Shown one piece after another: positions 1 to 22,161 of a DNA stretch of 45,655 nucleotides. Source of the DNA: an uncultured Bacilli bacterium. GTDB taxonomy: Bacteria > Bacillota_I > Bacilli_A > RFN20 > CAG-826. The stretch is taken from the NCBI GenBank assembly GCA_944363535.1, contig CALVUG010000004.1, positions 1 through 45,655 of the forward strand, in the 5' to 3' direction. The translations under genes were made by a program, and so were the position numbers. The notes under the pieces were generated by a model. That model saw only the letters and a program-made list of their open reading frames with translations. It had not been told where the DNA came from and ran no database searches. Numbering within the stretch: position 1 is the stretch's first letter; each line of letters opens with the position of its first letter.

Positions 1-255
1 GATGCATTGCATCTTTCTTATACATTATTTAATAAACACCTACGGAAAAATTCTTGTGTTGCTACGGAAAACGGGAGACTAATAATTGAGTGTCGTTCAT
101 ATTTCGTACCTACATTTTTTAAAAAGCTGTTTTAATAATACAAAAATAAGGCAAAACGAGGTGGAAATACCCATTTTTACCTATTTTTTTGTAATTTTAT
201 CGAAAATTAAAACAATCGCATTAAAAAACGGGGAACTCAAAGTAATGAAACGTCG

Positions 256-286
256 TTGACAAATATGAACGGGGGGGGGGTATTAT
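256..286 (+). promoter_or_regulatory. sigma70-type promoter with poly-G (G10) tract in the spacer
   Basis: TTGACA at 256-261, then AATATGAAC + G10 (271-280), then TATTAT at 281-286; spacer 19 bp; 36 bp upstream of the ATG at 323, with GAAAGGT at 304-310. Confidence 0.7.
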
Positions 287-322
287 ATTTATGATTTGTT
301 GATGAAAGGTCTTAATTAATAT

Positions 323-916
323 ATGTCCATAGAAGTTATTAAGTTGAATTGTCCTGGCTGTGGCGCGCCGGTATCAATTTCACAAAAAGAATGCGAATAT
401 TGTCATTCGCCTATTAATATTTCTACTTTTAATTCAGTCGCGGACATGTCTCTTTCTTTAATGAACAAATATGCCGGTAGTTATAAAAAAACTTTAGACG
501 CTCATCCGGATGATAAAGACGTGAATGCCTCGATGGGAATGATATATTTGAAACTTAAACTTTTTGATAAAGCTCTCGCCTGTTTTGAAATTGCTATGCA
601 AGATAATTTTGATAATGGAGATATTTTCTTCGCTGCCGCGATTGCGACTTTAAAAGGAAAAATTCCTTTCTTACATACGAAAGATGATATCGAAAAATGC
701 GAACAATATATTAATGCGGCGAATATGATTACTCCTAAAGGCATTTATTACGTTTTACTTAGTTATATAAAATACGATTATTACGAAAGAAAATATTTCG
801 ATACAGTTCCAAATTATTTGGAAACTTTATCGCAAGCAAAAGAATATGGCTACTCCGATATGGATGTAAATTCCTTGTTTGGCATGTTAGGAGTAGCGAG
901 ACCAAATTGGCTTTAA
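323..916 (+). CDS. Zinc-ribbon (CPGC...CEYC) plus TPR-repeat protein
   Basis: N-terminal CxxC-x12-CxxC; TPR-like helices MGMIYLKLKLFDKALACFEIAMQDNFDNGDIFFAAA; no TM segment. Confidence 0.75.
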   Translation: MSIEVIKLNCPGCGAPVSISQKECEYCHSPINISTFNSVADMSLSLMNKYAGSYKKTLDAHPDDKDVNASMGMIYLKLKLFDKALACFEIAMQDNFDNGDIFFAAAIATLKGKIPFLHTKDDIEKCEQYINAANMITPKGIYYVLLSYIKYDYYERKYFDTVPNYLETLSQAKEYGYSDMDVNSLFGMLGVARPNWL

Positions 917-952
917 AAGAGCAAAATCTTTTCTATATAGGAGGTATTATTT

Positions 953-1597
953 ATGGGCTTATTTGCTAGTCAAAAAGAAAAGAATTTAAAAGCTGGTCGC
1001 AGCAAAGAACAAAAACAAGTCATCGACTATTTCTTAGGAAAAGGTGGTTGTTTAGGTTTTGGAAAGCTTAACGACAAAAAATATGATGAACTTGTGAGCA
1101 AAGTCGTTCACGCGATCGACCACAAGAGTGAAGGTTTAAGAAAGATTGGTCTTGATCCAACACAAGTAAGTAAAGTAAAAGCTATTTCTTTTGAAGGTTA
1201 CAATTTTAGTGACAGAAATATTTTTACTAAACTTGGAAAAGATTTATTATGGCGTTCTTCTTCTTATCAAGTGACTTGGGTTTTCTTCACCGATGAAGAA
1301 TTATTCCTTTATCAATGGACGACGAATCTTGATGAAGATGGTAAGAAAGTTAGAACCGCTGAATATTTCTACAAAGATATCGTTAGCATCTACACTGAAA
1401 CTGGTTCAGAAGAACGTGAAGTTCTCAAGAGACGTGGTTTGACGACGAATATTTATCAAAGAATTCTTATGGATTACAATCAATTCATGATTGTTGTCCC
1501 AGGCGACAAATTAGCGATTTCTATCACTAATCCTGAAGCTTCTGAAAGATCGATTCAAGGTCTTAAGGCTTTAGTAAGAGAAAGAAAAGCTAAATAG
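953..1597 (+). CDS. Conserved hypothetical soluble protein, possibly PH-like beta fold in the C-terminal half
   Basis: Strong RBS AGGAGGT upstream; beta-rich segment YQVTWVFFTDEELFLYQW...EYFYKDIVSI ending in a helix (ERSIQGLKALVRERK); fold call is inference. Confidence 0.6.
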   Translation: MGLFASQKEKNLKAGRSKEQKQVIDYFLGKGGCLGFGKLNDKKYDELVSKVVHAIDHKSEGLRKIGLDPTQVSKVKAISFEGYNFSDRNIFTKLGKDLLWRSSSYQVTWVFFTDEELFLYQWTTNLDEDGKKVRTAEYFYKDIVSIYTETGSEEREVLKRRGLTTNIYQRILMDYNQFMIVVPGDKLAISITNPEASERSIQGLKALVRERKAK

Positions 1598-1603
1598 TTA
1601 GTT

Positions 1604-2077
1604 ATGAAGTTTGATAAGCAAGAACATGATTTTGTCTTCAAATATGTTTTAAATCATCCTCTAAGTAGACCTAACACTACACTTACTAAATGTATTTGTT
1701 ATATTATCTTGTTCTTGCTTTTTATCGTTTCATTAGGAGTGGGATTTTATTTCTTATTGAAGAACAGCAATTTTTTAAGTCCCGCTCTTAATGAGCTATT
1801 AAATGAAAATGTTGTCTTAAGCATTTTTATTATCACTCTTATTATCGGTAGTTATACTTTCTTGATTTTATCTCCGTCTATCATCACGGGGCTCGTCCAT
1901 CTTTATCAGCATTACGCTAAAACTGATCGGCGAAGAAAATGTAATTTTAAGCCAACTTGTTCGGAATATGCTTTATTAGCGATAAAAAAATATGGCGTTA
2001 TTCTCGCTTTAATAAAAATTATTCATCGTGTCTATTTCCGTTGTCGTGGTTCGATTTGTCGCATCGATTATCCTTAG
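1604..2077 (+). CDS. YidD-like (Haemolytic domain) protein with two N-terminal TM helices
   Basis: C-terminal HLYQHYA...CNFKPTCSEYALLAIKKYGV...RC matches the YidD CRFxPTCSxYA motif; two hydrophobic stretches at about aa 30-52 and 70-98. Confidence 0.75.
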   Translation: MKFDKQEHDFVFKYVLNHPLSRPNTTLTKCICYIILFLLFIVSLGVGFYFLLKNSNFLSPALNELLNENVVLSIFIITLIIGSYTFLILSPSIITGLVHLYQHYAKTDRRRKCNFKPTCSEYALLAIKKYGVILALIKIIHRVYFRCRGSICRIDYP

Positions 2078-2097
2078 AAAGGAAGGAGAAATAATTT

Positions 2098-3153
2098 ATG
2101 TCATTATTTAAACGTAGTGAAGTGAAAAAAACTTGGACTGAAGTCATTAAAAATGATTCTTCGCCTGATTATTTAATAAATTTGTATCCAAGCGAAGATT
2201 TCAATACGAATTCAACTTTAATTGTGCAGCCAGGCGAAGAAGCCATCTTCGTCGATGGAGGTATAATTAAGCAAGTATTCAGTAATGGCACTTATAAATT
2301 ATCGACGAAAAATTATCCTTTTATCACTAGTCTAAGAAACTTATTTTCTGGTGGTGTTTCCATTTTTAATTGCCGTGTCTACTTCGTTAGAACCACACAC
2401 AGTGTAGAAATTAAATGGGGAACGGATTCACCTATTCAAGTAAGAGATAAATTGTTAGGCATCGCGACGAAAATCAAATGTCGTGGAGCTTACAAAGTGC
2501 AAATAAAAAATCCTCAATTATTTTTGGAAAAATTAATTGGCAACAACATGGATTTTGAGTCTGAAGTTGGTCTAAATAAATACTTTATTAGTCAATTCCA
2601 ATCTAAGATTAAATCAGTTATCGCTCGCGCTTTACTAGAATCGAATATGGAACTTTTAGGAATCGATGCAAGACTCGATGAATTTAGTGAAATTATCGAA
2701 CCTTACATGGATGAAATTTTAAAAGAGTACGGCTTAACATGTACGCGTTTCGTCGTCAGCGCTTTAGATTTAGAAGATGATGAATTGCGACGTAAATATG
2801 ATGAGATTGGCATGGAAACAATTGCCAAGTTGAGACATGCACAGGCTGATAAAGCGGTCTTTGAGACGTTAGGTGATAATTGGCAAAGACAAAGACAAGC
2901 CGAAATTTTAAAAGCGGCAGCAGAAAATGAAGGTAGCGGTGGTGGAGCCGGTATCGGAGTGGGTTTAGGTGCAGGCTTAGGCATGTTTAATGCGATGCAA
3001 AATAATAACTCTAATAATATGGGTTTAGATAAGCCTAAAGGCAATGATGATGTCGCTACAAAACTTCAAACATTAAAAACTTTATTTGACCAAGGCTTGA
3101 TCGATAAAGATGAATATGACGCGAAAAGAAAGGAACTTTTAGCAAAATTATGA
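2098..3153 (+). CDS. SPFH/Band-7 protein of the YdjI (virion-core-like) type with C-terminal SHOCT domain
   Basis: STLIVQPGEEAIFV...GTYKLSTKNYP...VYFV...IKWGT pattern; Gly-rich linker GSGGGAGIGVGLGAGLGM; C-terminal KLQTLKTLFDQGLIDKDEYDAKRKELL (SHOCT). Confidence 0.85.
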   Translation: MSLFKRSEVKKTWTEVIKNDSSPDYLINLYPSEDFNTNSTLIVQPGEEAIFVDGGIIKQVFSNGTYKLSTKNYPFITSLRNLFSGGVSIFNCRVYFVRTTHSVEIKWGTDSPIQVRDKLLGIATKIKCRGAYKVQIKNPQLFLEKLIGNNMDFESEVGLNKYFISQFQSKIKSVIARALLESNMELLGIDARLDEFSEIIEPYMDEILKEYGLTCTRFVVSALDLEDDELRRKYDEIGMETIAKLRHAQADKAVFETLGDNWQRQRQAEILKAAAENEGSGGGAGIGVGLGAGLGMFNAMQNNNSNNMGLDKPKGNDDVATKLQTLKTLFDQGLIDKDEYDAKRKELLAKL

Positions 3154-3839
3154 AACTAAAAAATAAGATTTTAATTGCTACAATCGTATTAGATTTAGTG
3201 TTTATTGTTGTTTTTAATCTTTGTTTCTTTTTAATTGCAGGAACAATCCACACAGAGTCTACTTGGGTAGCGTATGCTTTTATTCATGTTTCTTACTTAT
3301 CTTTAATTTTAATTCCGCTATTAAAAACAAAAACGATGGGAAGTCATATTTATCAAATGACCTACTATGTTGTTGGTGTCATCTACTTTATTGCATCTTT
3401 TATCGCTAATATCGTGTTCTTATGTTTGGAATTAATTGATATCGTTCCTTCTATTACTACGAATGCAGTGCTATTTGGTTTATATTTAATCCTTTTCATA
3501 ACGTTTTACATCTTCAATGAAAAAAGTGCAGAGCAAGAAAGAATTGATCATAAAGAAGCAAGAGTTGTTAAAAATTATGCAGGTCGCATCGCTAGGCTCA
3601 TCGAAGTAGTGGAAGATAGAGACGTTAAAAGACAACTTCAAAATATTCACGATGAAATTCATTCTTTGCCTAGCCAAGAAGCACTTGGTACGCGTACGTA
3701 TGATATTAAAATTGATAATGCCATCGACGAATTAATGCTAGCGGTAAGTGAACAAAATAACGATGAAATCGTTAAACTTTGTAAGAAAATCCATCTTCTA
3801 TTAATTGAAAGAGATGCTTATAGGAAGGAAGAATATTAA
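3150..3839 (+). CDS. Membrane protein, about 4 TM plus C-terminal cytoplasmic helical domain
   Basis: Four hydrophobic segments in aa 1-122, then charged amphipathic helices; ATGA overlap with the SPFH stop codon (translational coupling). Confidence 0.7.
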   Translation: MKLKNKILIATIVLDLVFIVVFNLCFFLIAGTIHTESTWVAYAFIHVSYLSLILIPLLKTKTMGSHIYQMTYYVVGVIYFIASFIANIVFLCLELIDIVPSITTNAVLFGLYLILFITFYIFNEKSAEQERIDHKEARVVKNYAGRIARLIEVVEDRDVKRQLQNIHDEIHSLPSQEALGTRTYDIKIDNAIDELMLAVSEQNNDEIVKLCKKIHLLLIERDAYRKEEY

Positions 3840-3841
3840 TT

Positions 3842-4321
3842 ATGATTTCAGAACTTATTAGCACAATAATAGAAAATAAGAAAATCCATCTTTTATTATT
3901 TGGTTTATGGACAATAATCATATCATACTTTTGTAGGGGTGTTATTATTTCATCTAACTTTCATCTAGGTATAATAATTCTTCTTGCTGGATTCATTTTA
4001 GTTCTTCTGTTGACTGTTTTTTACATAATTAGATTTGGTCTTGAAAAGAAGTGGCTCGCTTTTGTTCTTGTCGGCTGTCTCATTAGCTTTTATCTCTCTA
4101 TGTTTTTAACTACTTTTTTATCCATCGATCCAGTTTATCTTCCACTTATTTCGCTAGGCGCGATGGGTATAGTTCTTATCTCTTACGTTGTGGTTAATCA
4201 CTTTTCTACACAAGAAAATTTGATTCCAACGTTCATTATTTTCTTCTTAACTGCCGCCATTTTTATTGGCCTTGCTTACTCATTATTATTTACTGTTGGT
4301 TTTCCATTACCGGTTTTTTAG
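3842..4321 (+). CDS. Small polytopic membrane protein (about 5 TM), paralog A
   Basis: Almost entirely hydrophobic; starts 2 nt after the upstream stop; shares MxSxLIxxIxENxK and YLPLI with the next gene. Confidence 0.65.
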   Translation: MISELISTIIENKKIHLLLFGLWTIIISYFCRGVIISSNFHLGIIILLAGFILVLLLTVFYIIRFGLEKKWLAFVLVGCLISFYLSMFLTTFLSIDPVYLPLISLGAMGIVLISYVVVNHFSTQENLIPTFIIFFLTAAIFIGLAYSLLFTVGFPLPVF

Positions 4322-4332
4322 ATGAATAAAAT

Positions 4333-4392
4333 TGTAAGAAAATTCATCTTCTTCTCGTGAAAAGAGATGCTTATAGAAAGAAAGGATATTAA
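4333..4392 (+). pseudogene. Duplicated relic of the 3' end of the 229-aa gene
   Basis: Reads CKKIHLLLVKRDAYRKKGY* versus CKKIHLLLIERDAYRKEEY* at 3780-3839; about 51 of 61 aligned bases identical by hand count. Confidence 0.8.
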
Positions 4393-4396
4393 ATTT

Positions 4397-4933
4397 ATGT
4401 TATCAGGACTTATTGGATCTATTTTAGAAAATAGAAAATTAAATATTATAATTGTTTTGTCACTTATCTCATTAATTTTTTATTTTATTTGGCCAGTCAT
4501 CTTTAATCTGATTTGGCCAGTCATCTTTAATTCGGCAAGTGAATTTATTTATTTATTGCTATTTCTTATTATTGTACCAGAAATCTTTGCGATTCCTGCT
4601 GGGATTTCTATTCATTTTTTAAAACGCTCCGGGGAAAATACGCTTTGGTATGTATATTTCGCTTTCGCTACTGTAATATTTTTTATTCCAGCGTTTATAG
4701 GCGCGACGTTATTTTATATGGTGCCTAATTTTCCAAATATGTATTTACCTTTAATTTATCTTGCTGGATACGTTGTAAATTTTTTACTTTATTTTGCGTT
4801 CAATATGGCTACTGATAGGGACCCTATGGGGCCAGTCATCGTTGTATTTGCGGGCCTCGTGGTCGTTTCTATGGTGGCAGCGTTTATCGCTTTATTTGCT
4901 TTTAATTACCCAGGTTTCTTTTTAGATGAATAA
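4397..4933 (+). CDS. Small polytopic membrane protein (about 5 TM), paralog B
   Basis: Start moved from 4367 to the ATG at 4397 because it aligns with the start of paralog A (MLSGLIGSILENRKL vs MISELISTIIENKKI). Confidence 0.65.
   Translation: MLSGLIGSILENRKLNIIIVLSLISLIFYFIWPVIFNLIWPVIFNSASEFIYLLLFLIIVPEIFAIPAGISIHFLKRSGENTLWYVYFAFATVIFFIPAFIGATLFYMVPNFPNMYLPLIYLAGYVVNFLLYFAFNMATDRDPMGPVIVVFAGLVVVSMVAAFIALFAFNYPGFFLDE
4487..4531 (+). repeat. In-frame tandem repeat, 24-bp period (21 bp perfect)
   Basis: ATTTGGCCAGTCATCTTTAAT at 4487-4507 and 4511-4531; encodes IWPVIFNL IWPVIFNS. Confidence 0.9.
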
Positions 4934-5912
4934 AAATGTAAGAATAATCGTATCTTCTGTTATCAGTCTAGTCGTCTTTGCTGTCGTCTTTGCTATCATA
5001 TTTTCTGTGTTTAATTCAAATGATTCACCTAAACCTCCCATCAATACACAATTGGGTGTAGTGGATAATATTGAATATGATAAAGATACGAACATCTTAT
5101 CGTGGGAAGAAATTGATTTTGCTGATTCATACAATGTAAGCATTAATGATAAAGTTGAAAGCGTAAATGAAACTTACTACACTGTTGATGTCGATCCAAG
5201 CATCACTTATTACATCGTAAAAATTCAAGCTTGTGATTCAACTGGAACATACTTATCATCTGAATGGTCAAAACCCTTTGAAATAACATTGACAAAGCAA
5301 GAAAGTCTTGTAAGTGCTGTTAATGAGTTTGCTGAAAGTATCCCTAGTGATGCCTATACAATGCATAATGTAGTAAGCATACACGCGGATGGAAGTCATC
5401 TATTTACTACTGCCGTCTATGAGAGAATGGGAAAAGACTATATTTTGACATATGATACAGACTGTGGAGAAACCATCACAAGTCTAGAAGAAGCACTTAA
5501 AACTCAGAACGTAAATGAAAAAACATACACAGATTCAAAAAATCTTGCAAAACACTATGACACTGCATCATCATTCTTGGCAAGAAGTGAATATAGCGAG
5601 CAAATTCAAGCGTTGGCAGATCAACAATATGATTTAAGTTTTGTAACAAGTCAGGCATATGAAATTACAAGTAATACAATAGGCTTAAAAGGAATATTAA
5701 AGGCTACAAAAGGAAATGAAAGCGATTATTATTCAATTGATTTAGAAATAGGCGTCGGAGATTTTACTAATGAAACTTATAAGTACACGAATGCCGTAGA
5801 GGATGTAATACAAAAAGGTATTATGGAGCACACTTTCGTTGAACTTACTGGGGATTTTAAAGAATATGCCCAACAAGTTGAGGAGATGCAAGCATCACAA
5901 AATAGCAATTAA
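4926..5912 (+). CDS. Membrane-anchored extracellular protein with fibronectin type III-like domain
   Basis: N-terminal TM/signal anchor; VDNIEYD..NILSWEEIDFADSYNVSIN...YYIVKIQACD...SSEWS is an FN3-like pattern; acidic composition. Confidence 0.6.
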   Translation: MNKNVRIIVSSVISLVVFAVVFAIIFSVFNSNDSPKPPINTQLGVVDNIEYDKDTNILSWEEIDFADSYNVSINDKVESVNETYYTVDVDPSITYYIVKIQACDSTGTYLSSEWSKPFEITLTKQESLVSAVNEFAESIPSDAYTMHNVVSIHADGSHLFTTAVYERMGKDYILTYDTDCGETITSLEEALKTQNVNEKTYTDSKNLAKHYDTASSFLARSEYSEQIQALADQQYDLSFVTSQAYEITSNTIGLKGILKATKGNESDYYSIDLEIGVGDFTNETYKYTNAVEDVIQKGIMEHTFVELTGDFKEYAQQVEEMQASQNSN

Positions 5913-6101
5913 TGCAACATTAAGTGCTTAGATTGCTTCAAAGAGATGAAAGAAAGTAGCAGTGTTTATACACCTTATTTTATGTTCATTTTCACAAATT
6001 GATATTTGATTTTAATTGGACTAACTCATAATCCTTATAATTTTTAATTAATTAAATAAAACGTTTATGTCATAATAATTATTACAAGGAGAACTATCCC
6101 C

Positions 6102-19652: not shown

Positions 19653-19657
19653 TTATG

Positions 19658-19687
19658 TTGACAAATATGAATATACGTTCATATAAT
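19658..19687 (+). promoter_or_regulatory. sigma70 promoter overlapped by SmtB/CzrA-type operator box 2
   Basis: TTGACA 19658-19663, N18, TATAAT 19682-19687; perfect 7-6-7 inverted repeat ATATGAA-TATACG-TTCATAT at 19665-19684. Confidence 0.82.
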
Positions 19688-19700
19688 ATTGGCGAGGTGA

Positions 19701-20027
19701 ATGAATATGGTCGATCAAATTATCGATGATGAAACGATTGAAGAAATGGAACAATTACTCAATGTTGCATCTGATTTCACTCGTCTAAAAATCTTACATG
19801 CTTTACTAAGTGGCGAAAAAAATGTCGGCGAGTTAATTGAAATAGTAGGGGCTTCGCAATCATTAGTGTCCCATCAATTACAAGTCTTAAGAAATAATAG
19901 ACTCGTGAGCGTTCGTAAAGATAAGACGAGAGTGTATTATCGTTTGGACGATGAACATATTAATATGTTATTTGAAGTCGTGTATGCGCACGTGATGGAA
20001 AAAAGGATGAAGAAAGAAGATTACTAA
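19701..20027 (+). CDS. ArsR/SmtB family metalloregulator with alpha5 Zn/Co site
   Basis: DFTRLKILHALL...SQSLVSHQLQVLR HTH; D-x-H-x10-H-x2-E (DEHINMLFEVVYAHVME). Confidence 0.9.
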   Translation: MNMVDQIIDDETIEEMEQLLNVASDFTRLKILHALLSGEKNVGELIEIVGASQSLVSHQLQVLRNNRLVSVRKDKTRVYYRLDDEHINMLFEVVYAHVMEKRMKKEDY

Positions 20028-20028
20028 T

Positions 20029-22161
20029 ATGGAAGAAATATTTATTTTGCGTGGCCTAGATAATAATTTAAAGGTCAATAATATCGAAGCTAGCTTTTTA
20101 AAATTAGATAACGTCAGTAATGCGCATTTTGATGAAGAAACAAGTCACCTTACTTTAAGTTACGAAGGTAAACTTATTAACATTAATAAGCTAAATAAAG
20201 TAATTAAAAAAACGTTAGGTAAAGACGTTTCAATCGAATATTTATCTAGCAAAGAATCGAAGAAAGAAAAAGTTATCGGTAAAGGTGAGATATTTTTAAT
20301 ATCTCGTATCTTCATTTCTTTAACGATCTTACTTCTTTCGATGTTTTGGCTTACCCCAACGTATGAAAACACGGATTTATATTTCATTCCTATCATCACT
20401 TACGTAGTCGGCTGGTTTATCATCAGCTACGACGTCCTATGGGAAATAGTGGAAAATATCATCCATAAAGAAAATTTCTTCGATGAGGCACTTCTCATGT
20501 CCATCGCTTCCATCGGGGCATTTGCCATTCAAGAATATTTTGAAGGGTGTCTCGTTATGATTCTTTCCCAAGTGGGCGAATTATTAGAGCACATTTCTTT
20601 ACATCGTTCTAAGAACGCGATCGTGGATGCGACCGATTTAAGACCGAAGACCGCGACCGTCTTAAAAAATAACAAATTAGTGACGATGCGCGCGGAAGAT
20701 GTAAAAGTCGGTGACATCATCTTAATTAAAGTTGGTGAAACGATCGCTTGCGATGGAGAAGTTGAAGAAGGTGAAGGAAGGGCTAATACTTCTTCTTTAA
20801 CAGGTGAATCATATCCTATCTTATTAAAGAAAGGTTCGAAAGCTTTAAGCGGTTACATTTTAGAAAGTGGCGAACTTCGCGTCAAAGTAAGTAAGGCTTA
20901 CGAAGATTCGACGATCGCAAAAGTGATCGAACTTGTTTCTAGTTCGCAAGAAAATAAATCGAAAACTGAAAGTTTTATTACTAAATTCGCAAAGTGGTAT
21001 ACGCCTTGCGTCGCCTTCCTTGCCGTCTTTGTTTTAATCGTCGGAGGTGCGGCAAGTGGAGATTGGTTAAAGTGGACTTATAACGCTTTAAATTTCTTAG
21101 TTATCTCTTGTCCTTGTGCCATCGTTATTTCCATTCCTTTATCTTATTTTACCGGGATTGGCTTAGCGTCAAAAAACGGTATCATCATCAAAGGTGGGAA
21201 CTATTTAGACGCTTTGAATTCGATGCAAAAATTATATTTTGATAAGACTGGTACGATCACGCAAGGCAAATTCTCCTTAGTTAGATTCGAAGCAGTGGAG
21301 ATGGAAGAAAAAGAATTCTTAGAGATGATTTATCGTATCGAAAAAAGATCTAACCATCCGATTGGTAAAGCCATCGTCGATTCATTAGATTTAAAGATTG
21401 ACGCAGATTTTAGAGGTAAGAGCGAAGATATTCCAGGCTATGGCTTAAAGGCTAATTATAAGAAAAAAGAAGTCTTAATTGGTTCAAGAAGGCTCATGGA
21501 AAAAGAAGGTGTGAACGTTCCTTTAATCGAAACGTATAGTACTTTAATTTACGTTGCGATCGATAAGGAATATAAAGGTTATCTCATCTTGGATGATAAG
21601 ATTAAAAATGATGCGCACGATTTCGTCTCCAATTTAAAAAATAACTACGTTAAAGGCGTGATGTTAACGGGTGATTTAAAAGGTAGCGCAGAACGGGCCG
21701 CTAAAGAACTTGGCATCGACGAATATCACGCAGAATTACTGCCAAGCGATAAATTAAACGTCTTAGAAAATGATTTGAAAGATGATCCAAAACGCGTCAT
21801 CGGATTCATGGGTGATGGGGTAAATGATGCACCTTGTATCGCTAGGGCGAACGTCGGTATCGCGATGGGTGGTTTAGGAAGTGATATCACTGTCGAAAAC
21901 GCGGACGTCGTCATCATGGATGATTCGCCTGACCGCGTGAACGATGCAATTAAAGTGGCAAGAGCGACTAGGGTAAGAACCATTGTCGATATAAGTGTGG
22001 CTTTATTAGTGAAAGTCATCATCATGATTTTATCCTTACTAAGCCTCGTTCCAATGTGGGTCGCAGTCCTAGCGGATTCAGGTCTTGCAGTGGTCTTAAT
22101 CATCTATAGTGTCTTACTCATCAAAAAGAAAATTCATAAGAAAAAAGAAATCACTTTATGA
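20029..22161 (+). CDS. Heavy-metal P1B-2 type ATPase (ZntA/CadA-like)
   Basis: TGES, ISCPCA, DKTGT, SNHP, GDGVNDAP, TM7 Lys (LLVKVI), TM8 LADSG. Confidence 0.92.
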   Translation: MEEIFILRGLDNNLKVNNIEASFLKLDNVSNAHFDEETSHLTLSYEGKLININKLNKVIKKTLGKDVSIEYLSSKESKKEKVIGKGEIFLISRIFISLTILLLSMFWLTPTYENTDLYFIPIITYVVGWFIISYDVLWEIVENIIHKENFFDEALLMSIASIGAFAIQEYFEGCLVMILSQVGELLEHISLHRSKNAIVDATDLRPKTATVLKNNKLVTMRAEDVKVGDIILIKVGETIACDGEVEEGEGRANTSSLTGESYPILLKKGSKALSGYILESGELRVKVSKAYEDSTIAKVIELVSSSQENKSKTESFITKFAKWYTPCVAFLAVFVLIVGGAASGDWLKWTYNALNFLVISCPCAIVISIPLSYFTGIGLASKNGIIIKGGNYLDALNSMQKLYFDKTGTITQGKFSLVRFEAVEMEEKEFLEMIYRIEKRSNHPIGKAIVDSLDLKIDADFRGKSEDIPGYGLKANYKKKEVLIGSRRLMEKEGVNVPLIETYSTLIYVAIDKEYKGYLILDDKIKNDAHDFVSNLKNNYVKGVMLTGDLKGSAERAAKELGIDEYHAELLPSDKLNVLENDLKDDPKRVIGFMGDGVNDAPCIARANVGIAMGGLGSDITVENADVVIMDDSPDRVNDAIKVARATRVRTIVDISVALLVKVIIMILSLLSLVPMWVAVLADSGLAVVLIIYSVLLIKKKIHKKKEITL

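Follow-up and report, generated by a model that had tools for sequence, protein, structure and literature searches.

The window analyzed here, a 45,655-nucleotide stretch of DNA from an uncultured member of the Bacilli, contains a probable promoter whose spacer is half made of an uninterrupted run of G's, and the length of that run differs between assemblies that are otherwise identical around it. We propose that this hypermutable tract lies in a sigma-A-type promoter driving an eight-gene operon (positions 323 to 5912) and that slipped-strand variation of the spacer tunes the operon's expression, a reading that, judged from DNA sequence, we hold to be correct with a probability of roughly three in four.

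The poly-G tract and its length variation

The promoter lies on the forward strand directly before the first gene of the operon (ORF1). Its -35 hexamer, TTGACA (256-261), matches the consensus at all six positions and is the same in every aligned lineage, where it forms part of the block GTTGACAAA. The first half of the spacer, the A/T-rich AATATGAAC (262-270), varies between lineages (AATGTGAAC and AAATTAAAC in relatives, TAAATAAAC in a paralogous promoter described below) and is followed by the G tract itself (271-280), the hypervariable element, which is ten G's long in the window allele and 8 to 12 elsewhere within identical flanks. The -10 hexamer, TATTAT (281-286; five of six consensus positions), abuts the G run directly, which makes the distance between the two hexamers 19 bp; the G run plus TATTATATTT is a block that stays constant across lineages. 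A transcription start is predicted, from geometry only, at 292-294, about 7 nt past the -10 hexamer. The first gene opens with the ATG at 323, which lies 37 nt past the -10 hexamer and 13 nt past a ribosome-binding site, GAAAGG (304-309), that all lineages have.

This layout (TTGACA, spacer, G10, TATTAT, with a 19-bp spacer) had been described in a sequence-only reading of the same DNA and proved exact when the letters were read again. The accompanying remark that the window has no other long G run was also borne out: the poly-G tract is the only G or C run of 7 or more nucleotides in the 45.6 kb on either strand, and a search of both strands for G7 returned four overlapping matches, all inside 271-280, against a mean of 0.61 in shuffled sequences. 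We estimate that a G10 would be expected about 0.01 times in a window of this size with 39% G+C. The program used to scan for promoters accepts spacers of 16 to 18 bp only, and the 256-286 site is absent from its output because its 19-bp spacer exceeds that range. No Rfam family and no tRNA was found in positions 1 to 1000 of the window.

Tract lengths were read from assembled contigs (ENA, Logan, and NCBI assemblies), with loci located by way of the ORF1 protein itself and of the 23-member cluster that contains it at 90% identity; further Logan run contigs were compared with the window, and the source runs were mostly chicken or other bird gut metagenomes. Some 37 independent assemblies of the species group could be scored in this way. 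By far the most common allele was G10 (n = 24; the window, X1, X2, X7, X8, X23-25, L004, L015, L017-20, L023, L025, L026, L028, L030-34, and L036), followed by G9 (n = 7; L001, L002, L022, L024, L027, X3, and X6), G12 (n = 3; L021, L035, and X13), G11 (n = 2; X17, at a depth of 136, and L016, in which the contig begins within the run), and G8 (n = 1; L029). Direct comparisons come from four near-clonal groups, each sharing an identical ORF1, in which there were no differences in 1,500 nt downstream or in 250 nt upstream and yet the run length differed: G10 and G9 in L017 and L024; G9, G10, and G8 in L027, L028, and L029; G10 and G12 in L032 and L035; and G10 and G9 in the window and L002. The comparison of strains that the sequence-only reading had proposed thus shows a tract that is far from invariant, ranging from G8 to G12 between otherwise identical flanks.

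Sequencing or assembly error at a homopolymer is one rival explanation, under which the true tract never changes. The lengths come from consensus contigs only, Illumina accuracy drops at long G runs, and some of the contigs have low coverage (2.7x for L002, 8x for X3), so that some of the single-G differences could be consensus errors. Several observations speak against error as the general explanation, and we regard it as extremely improbable. Lengths differ among high-depth contigs as well (G11 in X17 at a depth of 136, G10 in X7 at 58, and G9 in X6 at 46), two-G differences occur (the G12 alleles of L021, L035, and X13), and the variation is not confined to one assembler or source but spans four. 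In three of the groups, all homopolymers of at least 6 nt served as an internal control (22, 31, and 28 sites; 175, 47, and 58 comparisons): the poly-G tracts varied, as did a single A6/A5 site, whereas the 22 to 31 other homopolymers of the same contigs were otherwise constant. That the run itself might be an assembly artifact, a possibility raised in the sequence-only reading, is ruled out by its presence at the same position in about 37 assemblies made with different assemblers.

In X4, X13, and L016, moreover, contig ends fall within the run. In X13, the left contig stops exactly after ten G's and the right contig has G12; in X4, the right contig starts with G9 plus flank. Such break points fall where a de Bruijn graph would branch, which suggests, at the level of assembled sequence, that tracts of different length may be mixed within one sample. 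Identical lengths appear as homoplasies in four or five lineages that have diverged, which argues for reversibility. Throughout, the tract is uninterrupted in all ~37 sequences. The P0036 contigs, which carry a distantly related version of the operon from human gut and serve as an outgroup, have no homopolymer, which indicates that the tract was gained, and then kept, in the bird-gut lineage. Long homopolymers of other kinds are scarce in these loci: in the 14-kb loci L017 to L036 and in positions 1 to 6000 of the window (33 to 36% G+C), A and T runs never exceed 8 nt, and T8 itself occurs just twice, each time in L032, so that long homopolymers seem, by sequence composition, to be avoided there except in poly-G promoters.

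The promoter region and the operon behind it

In the ancestral arrangement, glnA lies upstream of the operon in divergent orientation. Positions 242-322 are kept in three upstream contexts, namely, the divergent glnA, a multi-copy element (the window and L002), and an IS3-type element (L021). Because the upstream neighbor is divergent and the insertions leave only 14 nt (window) or about 45 nt (L021) before the -35 hexamer, the operon's promoter must sit within 242-322, and this segment contains no second promoter-like pair of boxes. When eight lineage representatives were aligned, the two invariant blocks were GTTGACAAA and the G run with TATTATATTT, while the upstream DNA and part of the spacer diverged. 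In L032 to L036, the first half of the spacer is AAATTAAAC and the upstream DNA is unrelated; TTGACA, an unbroken G10 or G12, and TATTAT are all retained. The central proposal of the sequence-only reading, a hypermutable tract inside a promoter spacer, is therefore strongly supported at the DNA level, with boxes and tract conserved while their neighbors diverge.

The multi-copy element, whose end occupies positions 1-241 of the window, stops 14 nt upstream of the -35 hexamer; it is not part of the switch and serves here to delimit the promoter. In X2 it is found on a 1.5-kb contig whose depth, ~86, exceeds that of the flanks (23), with branch points of the contig graph at 47-76 and 212-241. 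It contains repeats (CTACGGAAAA at 40-49 and 62-71; AAAACGGG(A/G)(G/A)ACT at 68-80 and 225-237). In L001, L004, and L017, the sequence as far as position 241 is unrelated to that of the window; these relatives have glnA upstream and no multi-copy element. The IS3-type element of L021 (rve domain), about 45 nt before the -35 hexamer, has no similarity to the element in the window. The presence of two different elements at the same place shows that the 50 nt upstream of the promoter have been struck by two insertions. A 24-nt imperfect inverted repeat (94-117/248-271) had raised the idea of an invertible promoter; its left arm lies in the insertion that relatives lack, and no inversion joints were present in the run contigs.

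Which promoter code applies depends on the host. The window includes nusG, rplK, rpoB/C, fusA, and tuf, and its EF-G is 83% identical to proteins labeled "MAG: Bacilli bacterium" and "Erysipelotrichaceae bacterium." With a member of the Bacilli as host, canonical sigma-A promoters should apply. We considered a Bacteroidota promoter code, which differs, in view of some ORF1 homologs (55% identity) labeled Bacteroides or Paludibacter; it was rejected on the basis of EF-G and of the consensus TTGACA/TATAAT promoters that precede other genes of the window. Recognition of the motif TGAAC by an ECF sigma factor was likewise discarded, as the motif varies, with TAAAC in both L032 and the paralogous promoter, and the site lacks a -10 element of the CGT type.

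The tract or its flank could also be viewed as mainly a protein-binding or structural element, with the tract length modulating the action of a regulator rather than the spacing seen by RNA polymerase; the ArsR-family repressor encoded at 19701-20027 is one candidate. What makes this worth considering is that an identical 15-mer, GTTGACAAATATGAA, occurs at 255-269 and in the arsR promoter at 19657-19671, with an inverted copy, CGTTCATATTT, at 94-104, and that AAATATGAAC is present three times against 0.35 expected. Conservation points the other way: the half-site is replaced by AATGTGAAC in L004 and by AAATTAAAC in L032 to L036, where the boxes and the G run nevertheless persist, the second half-site is missing at the poly-G promoter, and the inverted copy at 94-104 sits in the inserted element that relatives do not have. 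We consider a regulator of this kind very unlikely. As for the arsR-family gene itself, it is accompanied by a gene for a heavy-metal P-type ATPase (19701-22161) behind a promoter at 19657-19690 of the form TTGACA-18-TATAAT, whose first 15 nt (GTTGACAAATATGAA) equal positions 255-269 of the poly-G promoter; a palindrome in the spacer of this arsR promoter, ATATGAA-N6-TTCATAT, is likely its operator.

The operon comprises eight closely spaced genes on the forward strand, annotated from an ORF list, Pfam, NCBIfam, and hydropathy. Gene 1 (ORF1; 323-916) encodes a Zn-ribbon/TPR protein, gene 2 (953-1597) a 214-residue soluble protein of no family, gene 3 (1604-2077) a transmembrane protein with a C-terminal YidD-like domain, and gene 4 (2098-3153) an SPFH protein of the Band_7_1, or YdjI, type (PF13421, E = 2.9e-37) with a SHOCT tail (2.6e-08). 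Gene 5 (3150-3839) specifies a protein with four transmembrane segments and a helical cytoplasmic tail, genes 6 and 7 (3842-4321 and 4367-4933) polytopic membrane paralogs, and gene 8 (4926-5912) a 328-residue protein with a single N-terminal anchor and a large exposed domain. The order of genes 1 to 5 is fixed in all relatives, and the distal genes are replaced between lineages: the distal proteins have 159, 188, and 328 residues in the window; 163, 443 (with a double Zn-ribbon), and 153 in L027; 171, 444, and 168 (DUF6273) in L032; and 155 and 327 in L030. This exchange suggests, from gene content, that the exposed parts are under diversifying selection.

These annotations bear on what the operon may do. 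The sequence-only reading had offered two possibilities, a costly defense or a surface-exposed function. A PADLOC search of the operon proteins returned just two marginal matches (E = 0.003 and 0.002), neither of them credible, and so gives the defense idea no support. The gene content looks like an SPFH membrane module of the YdjI type whose membrane and surface-anchored proteins vary, a better fit to the surface-exposed alternative. None of the eight operon proteins matched PspA/IM30 in Pfam or NCBIfam. In some assemblies of one lineage, two genes are each called as a pair of shorter ORFs: a gene for a 250-residue protein (2942-3694) in L018 and L026 (3336-3694 in both), for which the L028 counterpart shows a lipoprotein signal peptide, and a PreT-like gene in L020 (11711-12902). 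Frameshifts, pseudogenes, or errors of assembly may lie behind these split ORFs.

Evidence that the operon is transcribed somewhere comes from metatranscriptome contigs of relatives, which cover 524-742, 848-1871, and 2550-3242, that is, operon-internal parts, at low depth. Three further runs (X23 to X25) labeled "METAGENOMIC RNA-Seq" were set aside as expression evidence; their contigs of 23 to 113 kb cross intergenic DNA at even depth, which marks them as DNA libraries.

A second promoter and the wider occurrence of the design

The same design appears a second time in some lineages only, 4.4 to 5 kb upstream of the ORF1 promoter. This paralogous promoter (L027, 2465-2520; L028, 1956-2293; L033, 125-190) reads TTGACA-TAAATAAAC-G9 or G10-TATAAT (TAAAAT in L033) and is followed by a ribosome-binding site and a gene for an 85-residue membrane protein with three helices. 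Its tract length, too, is not the same in L027 and L028. The second site of X6 has as its core the very 27-mer found in the ORF1 promoter, and the sharing of this 27-mer by both sites suggests duplication or conversion.

Among 185,579 species genomes, the exact cassette had one match, at positions 143-169 of L003 (CALXLV010000015.1), a metagenome-assembled genome labeled Spirochaetaceae with 50% G+C. There, a lipoprotein gene with its ATG at 209 follows the exact 27-mer, TTGACAAATATGAAC-G10-TA, in flanks unrelated to the window, and the start of a short divergent ORF upstream looks transposase-like. Either transfer of a promoter cassette or convergence could account for this match. It also raised the question of whether the window itself might come from a Treponema-like organism, which we rejected given that the closest relatives of its EF-G (83%) are Bacilli/Erysipelotrichaceae genomes and that L003 has 50% G+C and unrelated flanks. 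The exact cassette had no match in a scan of JGI metagenomes and none in a scan of viral contigs.

A looser search of metagenomes with the pattern TTGACA-N8-10-G>=9-TA gave a broader picture, with at least 124 sites in at least 120 contigs. Among the matches listed, the hexamer after the G run had T at its sixth position in 85% of cases, compared to 28% in the control, and matched TATAAT at five or more of six positions in 62%, compared to 9%. This enrichment of -10-like hexamers after G runs indicates that a poly-G tract abutting the -10 element is a genuine and common promoter design.

Taken further, these observations allow a bolder, and to our minds rather doubtful, suggestion: the locus could belong to a set of portable promoter cassettes with a poly-G tract (TTGACA, nine A/T-rich nucleotides, G8-12, TAtaAT) that act as a widespread and unrecognized contingency switch in uncultured gut bacteria. 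Such a cassette would have been conserved across species-level divergence and duplicated or converted between loci, and here it would make phase variable a membrane-organizing module of the SPFH/YdjI type with exchangeable exposed subunits, rather than a classical antigen. On this suggestion, the module is possibly a structure for phage contact or for envelope repair.

Predicted effects on expression and comparison with known systems

In the mechanism that we propose for the ORF1 promoter, replication slippage (slipped-strand mispairing), for which a homopolymer of about 8 nt or more is long enough, would add G's to the run or remove them. The number of G's would set both the distance between TTGACA and TATTAT and their rotational phasing (17 bp for G8, 18 for G9, 19 for G10, and 21 for G12), and promoter strength would shift in a manner that is heritable yet reversible. 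A population would then always be a mixture of cells with different levels of operon expression, and the products varied in this way would be the YdjI-type SPFH membrane module and its strain-variable membrane and surface-anchored proteins. From the DNA, we infer that the site is an active promoter, that tract length would act on transcription, that lengths would divide into high and low, and that switching would occur within clones.

The rank of the individual alleles is less straightforward. A 19-bp spacer would make a poor promoter in model organisms, and the sequence-only reading had taken G10 as a low or off state and G8 as the optimum. This assignment may not hold, G10 being the most common allele (24 of ~37) and local promoters mostly having 18-bp spacers. 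Directly upstream of other genes of the window are four near-consensus promoters (at least 11 of 12 positions), with spacers of 18, 18, 16, and 18 bp; since three of the four use 18 bp, G9 may be as good as G8. It may also be that G9 is fully active and G10 reduced. The predominance of G10 would mean either that a low state is favored in vivo or that a 19-bp spacer is tolerated here. A conserved operon that is mostly "low" would be odd unless one of these holds, and this counts against our preferred explanation.

The same predominance of a nominally poor 19-bp spacer also favors a neutral view, in which the tract is hypermutable with no regulatory effect, either because transcription starts elsewhere or because the promoter is insensitive to spacers of 17 to 21 bp, and its length is mere noise. 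Low-level RNA contigs of ORF1 in a study whose DNA has G11 can be read in the same sense. A G run free of function should decay by interruptions, however, and none of the ~37 sequences is interrupted, despite the inclusion of lineages with diverged flanks. Moreover, the run lies exactly between two conserved consensus boxes, here and at the paralogous locus; no alternative promoter is present in the 80 nt between the insertion and the operon; and G runs in metagenomes precede -10-like hexamers far above chance. We therefore think neutrality unlikely and prefer spacer variation that tunes expression.

Precedents for such tuning are well established. In Neisseria meningitidis, a poly-G tract fills the spacer between the -35 and -10 boxes of porA, and opc has a poly-C promoter; the gain or loss of a single G shifts the spacing, and expression of membrane proteins becomes graded or switches on and off. 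The window shares with porA a G homopolymer in the promoter spacer and differs in that the host is an uncultured gut Bacilli member rather than a Gram-negative pathogen and the target an eight-gene operon of the SPFH/YdjI type rather than a single porin; here, the tract abuts the -10 hexamer, the modal spacer is 19 bp, and the system is known from DNA alone. In Mycoplasma hyorhinis, a wall-less relative of the Bacilli, a poly-A tract in the vlp promoter spacer switches surface membrane proteins. A homopolymer in the promoter spacing and membrane proteins as the target are common to both, but the tract is poly-A there and poly-G here, and the vlp products are lipoprotein antigens of a multigene family, whereas the conserved core of our operon is cytoplasmic or membrane associated.

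A further precedent is found in Treponema pallidum, where tp0126, encoding an OmpW homolog, has a poly-G tract between -35 and -10 with optimal expression at 17 nt and where the poly-G of tprL ranges from 7 to 11 G's within isolates around one dominant length (PMC7864442). Poly-G promoters also belong to tprE, G, and J. The range and single mode of the tprL tract resemble G8 to G12 with a G10 mode in our data. Phylum and ecology differ, and in Treponema, variation within isolates and reporter activity have been shown, whereas the lengths compared here are between assemblies only.

For the operon's products, the nearest parallel is the membrane-stress operon pspA-ydjGHI (samGHI) of Bacillus subtilis, in which YdjI is recruited by the membrane proteins YdjG and YdjH and links PspA to the membrane (PMC8581546). 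Both systems encode a soluble SPFH protein together with membrane proteins, gene 4 of the window being the Band_7_1 match (2.9e-37). In the window, the partners are a Zn-ribbon/TPR protein, a YidD fusion, and a four-transmembrane protein, and there is no pspA gene, so that the operon resembles pspA-ydjGHI and does not belong to it. Regulation would differ as well, with induction by sigma-W in B. subtilis and a repeat switch as proposed here.

The mechanism is thus already known, and what is new is the host group, an uncultured lineage of Bacilli, and the target operon. Full-text literature searches, directed at this clade and at metagenomes of gut Firmicutes, returned no report of repeat variation in promoter spacers. 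To our knowledge, phase variation of this type is textbook material for a handful of pathogens and hardly documented in uncultured commensal Bacilli. The present case shows that public assemblies alone can yield its DNA-level signature at a conserved operon, the tract changing while kilobases of flank remain identical. The target is an unusual one, a membrane module of the SPFH/YdjI kind whose distal genes differ between strains. It offers a testable case of gut commensals with reduced genomes diversifying their membrane make-up stochastically, and, if expression follows tract length, it would open a route to the role of this operon family, which might, for instance, lie in phage adsorption, envelope stress, or host contact.
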